Source: a virus
Taxonomy: Duplodnaviria > Heunggongvirae > Uroviricota > Caudoviricetes
Direction: 5' to 3' (one strand)
Virus record (IMG/VR): IMGVR_UViG_2695420653_000001
DNA length: 5,440 bases
In this document: positions 4,599 through 5,440 of the stretch, piece after piece
Numbering within the stretch: the stretch's first letter is position 1
How the letters are laid out: each line of letters opens with the position of its first letter
The notes under the pieces: model-generated
Database searches by the model: none
Told to the model about the DNA's origin: nothing
The model's input: the letters and a program-made list of their open reading frames with translations, nothing else
Position numbers and translations under genes: made by a program

Positions 4599-5168
4599 AT
4601 GTCAAACATCAAAAAATACATCATTGATTACGACTGGAAAGCATCAATAGAAATTGAAATCGACCATGACGTAATGACAGAGGAAAAACTTCACCAGATT
4701 AATAATTTCTGGTCAGACTCTGAATACCGACTCAATAAACACGGCTCTGTATTAAATGCTGTATTAATCATGCTGGCGCAACATGCTCTGCTTATAGCAA
4801 TTTCAAGCGACTTAAATGCATATGGTGTTGTGTGTGAGTTCGACTGGAATGATGGAAATGGTCAGGAAGGATGGCCTCCAATGGATGGTAGCGAAGGAAT
4901 AAGAATTACCGATATCGATACATCAGGAATATTTGATTCAGATGATATGACTATCAAAGCCGACTCGAGGCGTTTTTCGTTATGTATAAATAAGGAGCAC
5001 ACCATGCAATATGCCATTGCAGGGTGGCCTGTTGCTGGCTGCCCTTCCGAATCTTTACTTGAACGAATCACCCGTAAATTACGTGACGGATGGAAACGCC
5101 TTATCGACATACTTAATCAGCCAGGAGTCCCAAAAAATGGATCAAACACTTATGGCTATCCAGACTAA
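4599..5168 (+). CDS. ea10: Ea10-like early protein; in this sequence the frame continues without a stop into cIII (189-codon ORF)
   Basis: ATG 4599 with GAGGA 9 nt upstream and in-frame TAG immediately before; MSNIKKYIIDYDWKASIEIEIDHDVMTEEKLHQINNFWSD... recognised as lambda Ea10; no in-frame stop before the cIII stop at 5166..5168. Confidence 0.8.
   Translation: MSNIKKYIIDYDWKASIEIEIDHDVMTEEKLHQINNFWSDSEYRLNKHGSVLNAVLIMLAQHALLIAISSDLNAYGVVCEFDWNDGNGQEGWPPMDGSEGIRITDIDTSGIFDSDDMTIKADSRRFSLCINKEHTMQYAIAGWPVAGCPSESLLERITRKLRDGWKRLIDILNQPGVPKNGSNTYGYPD
5004..5168 (+). CDS. cIII: CIII protein (FtsH/HflB inhibitor stabilising CII), 54 aa
   Basis: ATG 5004 with strong SD TAAGGAG (4991..4997); [54 protein letters not shown] matches remembered lambda CIII. 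Confidence 0.92.
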   Translation: MQYAIAGWPVAGCPSESLLERITRKLRDGWKRLIDILNQPGVPKNGSNTYGYPD

Positions 5169-5388
5169 ATTCACTATCGCCACTTTTATTGGCGATGAAA
5201 AGATGTTTCGTGAGGCCGTCGACGCTTATAAAAAATGGATATTAATACTGAAACTGAGATCAAGCAAAAGCATTCACTACCCCCCCCTTCCCTGTTTTCC
5301 TAATCAGCCCGGCATTTCGCGGGCGATATTTTCACAGCTATTTCAGGAGTTCAGCCATGAACGCTTATTACATTCAGGATCGTCTTGA
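5137..5388 (+). CDS. kil: Kil (host cell-division inhibitor) homolog; ORF here is 83 codons because the position of the expected stop reads TAC
   Basis: ATG 5137 overlapping the cIII 3-prime end; [47 protein letters not shown] then continues YPPLPCF...; lambda Kil as I recall is 47 aa, which would end at 5280. Confidence 0.75.
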
Positions 5389-5440
5389 GGCTCAGAGCTG
5401 GGCGCGTCACTACCAGCAGATCGCCCGTGAAGAGAAAGAG
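5357..5440 (+). CDS. gam: Gam (RecBCD inhibitor), N-terminal part of the short form; continues past window end
   Basis: ATG 5357 gives [28 protein letters not shown], the remembered start of the 98-aa Gam short form; the long-form ATG at 5235 is in a different frame here and hits a stop at 5301..5303. Confidence 0.8.

Follow-up and report, generated by a model that had tools for sequence, protein, structure and literature searches.

A C8 run at the kil-gam junction of a wild lambdoid prophage as a rare allele of a polymorphic C/T tract

In phage lambda, kil encodes a 47-residue division inhibitor directed at FtsZ/ZipA, and the gene stops at codon 48. The active helix-turn-helix core of Kil comprises residues 4-38, an RSSK motif near the C-terminus is widely conserved, and deletion of the C-terminal 11 residues leaves activity, truncations and N-terminal tags being tolerated (PMC11762379). 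The Kil forms assayed in the literature are the 47-residue form, truncations and HK629 Kil (PMC11762379, PMC3961180); we found no published experiment on extended forms of 54 or 83 residues. Downstream, gam, the gene for a host-nuclease inhibitor, specifies two isoforms, GamL (138 residues) and GamS (98 residues), which presumably arise from two start sites and are both active when expressed (PMC5218532, PMC11610958). GamS, residues 41-138, is the form present in the structure of the complex with RecBCD (PMC5218532). A natural allele giving a 54-residue Kil, with the tract C6-TT-CCC or C6-TTT-CC at the end of kil, occurs in E. coli 14EC007, phage PhiR11_1 and many Stx and other lambdoid prophages. 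It shares with the locus described here the replacement of the kil stop TAA by TAC and identical flanks, and its C6-TT-CCC subtype also shares a T to C change. The C6 alleles keep the length of lambda, so that the TAA in TCCTAATC ends kil seven residues later and the long gam frame remains uninterrupted. The present locus has two more C.

The stretch analysed, 5,440 nucleotides long and referred to as the window, is on the evidence of its ORF content and its alignments to annotated records the early-left/immunity region of a wild imm434-type lambdoid prophage of E. coli, with the lambda map reversed. Its features are as follows.

Minus strand: O, cII and cro (window gene content)
Plus strand: 434-type cI, then a 134-residue gene downstream of it, N, ral, ea10, cIII, kil and the start of gam
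Minus strand: sieB
5137-5388, plus strand: kil ORF of 83 codons by translation, from ATG 5137 to the stop TGA at 5386-5388
5235-5303, plus strand: remnant of the lambda-type long gam (GamL) frame, from ATG 5235 through 22 codons to TAA 5301-5303
5278-5280, plus strand: position of the lambda kil stop, kil codon 48, which reads TAC (Tyr) where lambda has TAA
5280-5292, plus strand: polymorphic C/T tract C8-TT-CCC, by alignment the natural C6-TT-CCC allele plus CC
5307-5334, plus strand: terminator-like hairpin found by scanning, GCCCG-GCATTTCG-CGGGC (stem-loop 5307-5324) with a T-rich tail, 19 nt downstream of the tract
5345-5349, plus strand: short gam Shine-Dalgarno sequence AGGAG, 7 nt before the ATG
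5357-5440, plus strand: start of gam, 98-residue short form (GamS), continuing past the window end

Alignment reveals 76 differing sites between the window and laboratory lambda imm434 and 42 between the window and phage Chlobot, which rules out both as its identity. The prophage of E. coli STEC711 (NZ_CP041416), located at the lambda attachment site adjoining ybhC, is essentially identical to the window; beyond a 36-nt block it differs at one base only. The Logan contig SRR7468973_252 (L139) shows no difference from the window outside that block. Both relatives have the window's tract length, two nucleotides above that of lambda, and both keep the 36 nt that the window lacks, but the STEC711 tract reads C9-T where that of the window reads C8-TT.

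At the 3' end of kil, lambda (NC_001416), lambda imm434 and Chlobot read CACTA-A-CCCCC-TTT-CCTG, compared to CACTA-CCCCCCCC-TT-CCCTG in the window. Relative to lambda, the window thus carries an A to C change in the third base of the stop codon, an additional CC and a T to C change. An earlier note on this DNA had proposed the TAA to TAC change and a net gain of two nucleotides relative to lambda and had called for an alignment to the lambda reference; that base-by-base alignment agrees on both points, and the lambda sequence given in the note proved right. The positions that it gave for the C8 run, the TAC codon, the end of kil, the ATG at 5235, the TAA at 5301-5303 and the ATG at 5357 are each reproduced from the sequence. 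Translation and alignment likewise uphold its description of a kil frame that has lost its stop and runs open to 5388, of an interrupted 138-codon gam frame with the two gam starts 122 nt apart instead of the 120 nt of lambda, and of a short gam start that is intact, with ATG at 5357.

We consider it very probable that the C8 run is a heritable allele of the polymorphic C/T tract at the end of kil, and that it is a near-neutral length variant within a spacer unconstrained as coding sequence. In the window, kil is read for 83 codons, and not 47 or 54, through the spacer, the hairpin and the gam ribosome-binding site, and the lambda-style 138-codon gam frame is cut to 22 codons. Gam would be made as the 98-residue short form from ATG 5357 behind AGGAG, as in relatives that have no in-frame long start, and Kil activity would be retained, with the added tail largely disordered.

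The tract is variable among natural lambdoid phages. A survey of IMG/VR, comprising a sample of 120 lambdoid loci matched by their flanks, contains 10 tract alleles. Seven of these loci are one base shorter than lambda. The kil TAA is replaced by TAC in 21 of the 120. Judged by the contigs that carry the 54-residue Kil, about 1000 or more, an allele with TAC at the stop position is common in nature. The allele CACTA-C6-TT-CCCTG has both substitutions of the window but the length of lambda. It is found in PhiR11_1, in E. coli 14EC007, in other complete genomes and in 5 of the 120 IMG/VR loci, and over 91 nt a 2-nt gap is the sole difference between these records and the window. A gain of CC is therefore the simplest origin, and the comparison indicates that the C8 run most likely arose from this allele, which was already without the lambda TAA. 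The step itself would be a slipped-strand gain of CC in the C6 run of a common natural allele, an origin that we infer from the alignments. The run at 5280-5287 is the sole C8 in the window; shuffling predicts 0.09 such runs, and at least one appeared in 12 of 200 shuffles, so the run is not significant by composition alone. What is mildly unusual about it is explained by descent from an existing C5 or C6 tract. The C9-T of STEC711 is one transition away from the window allele; at positions 6029-6061 of that locus (L006) the tract reads C9-T-CCC, with the same total length as C8-TT-CCC. The 83-residue Kil variant of STEC711, which contains PPPP, occurs on that single contig only.

A homopolymer run of this kind may also arise from an error of sequencing or assembly, in which case the true run would be shorter and kil and long gam would be arranged as in lambda or the C6 allele. 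C8 runs are error-prone on some platforms, and the 36-nt deletion unique to the window could hint at imperfect assembly. Alleles of C7 or longer are absent from IMG/VR, GTDB representatives and JGI metagenomes in scans with exact and variable-gap patterns; phage records contain no exact match to the tract allele of the window; and among complete RefSeq E. coli genomes none has the exact C8-TT, the only allele of the same length being the C9-T of STEC711. A 44-nt megablast query centred on the tract gave no match in E. coli genomes, probably because of low-complexity masking. The empty pattern scans first suggested a private or erroneous variant, a view overturned by an exact-protein look-up, in which the 83-residue Kil is on record under several accessions in NCBI, ENA and Logan. 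The look-up returned 57 index blocks, from which 24 contigs were read, so that the exact protein is present on at least 24 public contigs.

The nucleotide sequence of the tract was then compared at 15 fetched loci bearing this exact protein, drawn from NCBI isolate assemblies (e.g. GCA_002971475.1 and GCA_013065785.1), Logan assemblies of SRA runs and ENA metagenome assemblies. All 15 have the identical tract CACTA-C8-TT-CCCTG. Over the 3 kb downstream the carriers show 27-67 mismatches to one another and lose collinearity at differing points; their immunity/N modules differ, and so does the cargo that follows (DndB, Dam). By these comparisons the carriers are diverged, differently recombined prophages and represent more than one clone. 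The variant is thus not limited to one assembly, and separate homopolymer errors would not converge on an identical +2 state in independent assemblies, which argues that the C8 run is a genuine and heritable allele. The allele is rare. The complete-genome record of STEC711, with its tract of the same +2 length, also speaks against an error. We regard a sequencing or assembly error as very unlikely. The earlier note had called homopolymer error a strong alternative, an estimate that does not survive the 15 identical tracts, one of them (L139) in a sequence that otherwise matches the window outside the 36-nt block. The genes are known ones, and public databases already contain the variant. Since the long gam frame that it breaks is lacking in about half of wild relatives anyway, the C8 variant is ordinary natural variation. 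The frame break is neither a defect nor an error, and a comparison with lambda is no ground for 'repairing' it or for marking a pseudogene in the annotation.

Residues 1-47 of the window Kil are exactly those of lambda Kil, including the core (residues 4-38) and the RSSK motif, and the gene has the same Shine-Dalgarno sequence, ATG and cIII-overlapping position as in lambda. The TAC codon and the 2-nt shift then add a 36-residue tail that is encoded by the kil-gam spacer together with the initial 32 nt of gam and so overlaps the gam start. The Pfam family Lambda_Kil (PF06301) matches residues 2-32 of the 83-residue protein with 70.5 bits (cut-off 27.6), and the helix-turn-helix core is intact. 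Most members of the family end at or near codon 47, with 47 or 54 residues, whereas the window protein has 83. In an AF2 single-sequence model, helices at residues 3-18 and 21-41 have pLDDT values of 83-86; in the tail pLDDT drops from 68 to 40, and the only helix, at residues 62-74, is of low confidence. The model, itself weak evidence, suggests that the tail is probably largely unstructured or disordered. Since residues 1-47 are unchanged and the added tail is probably unstructured, Kil with its 36-residue tail probably keeps its FtsZ/ZipA-directed activity.

Tails of several lengths are present in public data, and Kil accordingly carries variable C-termini, in forms of 47, 54, 73-74 and 82-83 residues. 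The 54-residue form is on about 1000 or more contigs, and the forms of 73-74 and of 82-83 residues are on tens of contigs. Forms of 82 residues enter the same tail frame through different indels, which implies several separate entries into this frame, with no clear sign that selection favours or opposes it.

Loss of function offers another reading of the long kil frame: the +2 allele would inactivate kil and turn it into a pseudogene of a domesticated prophage, a change perhaps favoured by the toxicity of Kil on induction. Annotation by PGAP is inconsistent on this point. It flags kil as incomplete, a pseudogene, in STEC711, but names the 83-residue product Kil in several other records, and the exact protein stands in public records as 'host cell division inhibitory peptide Kil'. 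The tail, 36 residues of spacer-derived sequence with a low-confidence model, would be compatible with decay, but the 47 canonical residues, the kil Shine-Dalgarno sequence and the ATG are all intact, and the tolerance of Kil to truncations and N-terminal tags (PMC11762379) also counts against inactivation. In the carriers, cIII, gam, bet, exo and int are intact, which indicates that there is no general decay. One statement in the literature would fit inactivation, namely that disruption of the kil stop codon abolishes Kil activity (PMC3961180). The statement is ambiguous: it cites the figure for a start-codon mutant, and for that reason 'stop codon' is probably a slip. Were it meant literally, the 83-residue Kil could be inactive, and the statement would bear on all natural kil alleles that lack the stop. 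Altogether we judge decay of kil unlikely.

The window cannot produce GamL by normal translation. The GamL ATG and the first 15 codons are present, but the two gam starts are out of register and a stop lies between them, and no Shine-Dalgarno sequence precedes the ATG at 5235, where the upstream sequence is GCTTATAAAAA. In contrast, the start, Shine-Dalgarno sequence and N-terminus of GamS are conserved with lambda, 27 of the 28 visible residues being identical. In L139, where the gene is complete, the 98-residue Gam with its own Shine-Dalgarno sequence matches the Pfam family Gam (PF06064) over positions 1-98 of 98 with 212.8 bits; the profile itself has 98 positions and thus describes the short form only, end to end.

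The same separation of a conserved short gene from a variable extension is seen across the wild relatives. At 118 IMG/VR loci the long and short starts lie 120 nt apart in 64 cases, 121 nt in 49 and 119 nt in 5, so that 54 of the 118 lambdoid loci have the long gam frame out of register, through indels unrelated to the one described here; GamL is likewise not makeable in roughly half of wild relatives. Behind the +1 spacing is an unrelated inserted T close to the gam Shine-Dalgarno sequence, for example in Chlobot and Stx phages. PhiR11_1 has another +1: the AAAA run immediately before the tract is longer by one A (AAGCAAAAAGC). Together with TAC, this extra A yields an in-frame Kil-Gam ORF of 171 codons at positions 1008-1523 of its locus (L004, PV340547), and the PhiR11_1 record annotates a still longer 'Gam' of 642 nt.

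Sequence diversity was computed over 74 distinct IMG/VR sequences. As a fraction of columns, substitution density is highest in the spacer, from the kil stop to the short gam ATG (0.244), compared to 0.122-0.140 in kil and 0.209 in gamS. The spacer also has three separate indel columns with lengths that are not multiples of 3, and the counts of changes by codon position show no clear third-position bias in the long-gam frame (5/5/8), compared to 17/15/30 in gamS. The short gam AGGAG is conserved in nearly all of the 74 sequences. Taken together, the data on spacing, diversity, the Pfam profile and the Shine-Dalgarno sequence indicate that the 40-codon extension of lambda gam behaves as a non-coding spacer in the wild population and that its breakage is commonplace. 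The survey provides a population-level argument that the 98-residue Gam is the conserved unit and that the 138-codon lambda annotation is not a conserved structure. With 54 of 118 loci out of register and the TAC allele common, the 47-residue Kil and 138-codon gam of lambda are one state of a polymorphic spacer rather than a conserved design. The damage to a lambda gene structure implied in the earlier note was overstated on the same two counts.

The hairpin at 5307-5324 lies within the extended kil frame. It is called at the same site in L139, it is the single element predicted consistently in RNA folds of three alleles, and in the C8 allele it is translated within the Kil tail. Ribosomes on kil would cross both the hairpin and the gam ribosome-binding site and stop 32 nt inside gam. 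Since pL is reported to give poor expression of Kil (PMC3961180), we expect little effect of Kil-tail translation on gam. Sequence variation at the hairpin hints that its RNA stem is under selection. The two terminator-like hairpins may correspond to the tL2 terminator cluster, whose positions a literature search did not yield, and we do not claim this assignment. In Chlobot (L001, about 6841-6858) the hairpin has a compensatory C to T change in the 5' arm with G to A in the 3' arm, which keeps one pair. Many IMG/VR loci have C to T changes in the hairpin that preserve a G-U pair, while a few alleles (GGAC) break a pair.

The tract could also serve as a regulatory or recoding device: a phase-variable C-run, a C_CCC_CCU -1 frameshift site that restores a GamL-like protein, or a coupling of kil to gam. 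There is a formal X_XXY_YYZ heptamer, C_CCC_CCU, at 5282-5288 in the long-gam frame (CUA CCC CCC CCU), and a -1 shift there enters the open gam frame. However, no Shine-Dalgarno sequence precedes ATG 5235, the hairpin begins 19 nt after the heptamer rather than 5-9 nt downstream, the heptamer is missing from the relatives, and in about half of them unrelated indels at other places interrupt the long gam frame; we reject a programmed -1 frameshift on these grounds. Tract length does vary among lambdoids, as a switch would require, but C8-TT is invariant in the 15 diverged carriers and STEC711 differs by a substitution and not in length, so the tract does not behave as a contingency locus and a phase-variable tract is rejected as well. 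Coupling would fit the overlap of the Kil tail ORF with the hairpin and with the gam Shine-Dalgarno sequence and ATG. RNA folding of the tract region for the three alleles gives nothing significant beyond the hairpin (z -1.4 to -1.9) and assigns the C-run no pairing role, which weighs against any device of this sort. We hold such a device to be extremely improbable. There is also very little likelihood that the C8 allele is functional in the broader sense, with -1 slippage giving a GamL-like protein or with translation of the Kil tail altering Gam output or Kil potency; if it were, the balance of kil and gam in wild lambdoid prophages would be adjusted through the length of the tract.

Upstream of kil, a 36-nt in-frame deletion unique to the window lies at 4962/4963. 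Either a genuine private deletion or a fault of assembly could account for it. It is absent from the phage, plasmid and complete E. coli records searched, none of the contigs with the 125-residue ORF version has it, and the Ea10-CIII fusion protein that results is absent from a collection of 15 billion protein sequences. The deletion removes the ea10 TGA, so that ea10 and cIII form one in-frame ORF at 4599-5168, of 189 residues, in which Pfam recognises DUF2528 and Lambda_CIII. A small GC hairpin is lost as well, and so is the 5' arm of an 8-bp terminator-like stem. All relatives have this stem, AACGCTTC-TCTC-GAGGCGTT, with a T-run behind it; the scan calls it in the intact L139 but not in the window. 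The cIII thermoregulator (Rfam Lambda_thermo, RF01804), at 4991-5049 on the plus strand with 88.5 bits, is the sole Rfam match in the window; it is intact about 28 nt downstream of the deletion junction, as are the cIII Shine-Dalgarno sequence and ATG.
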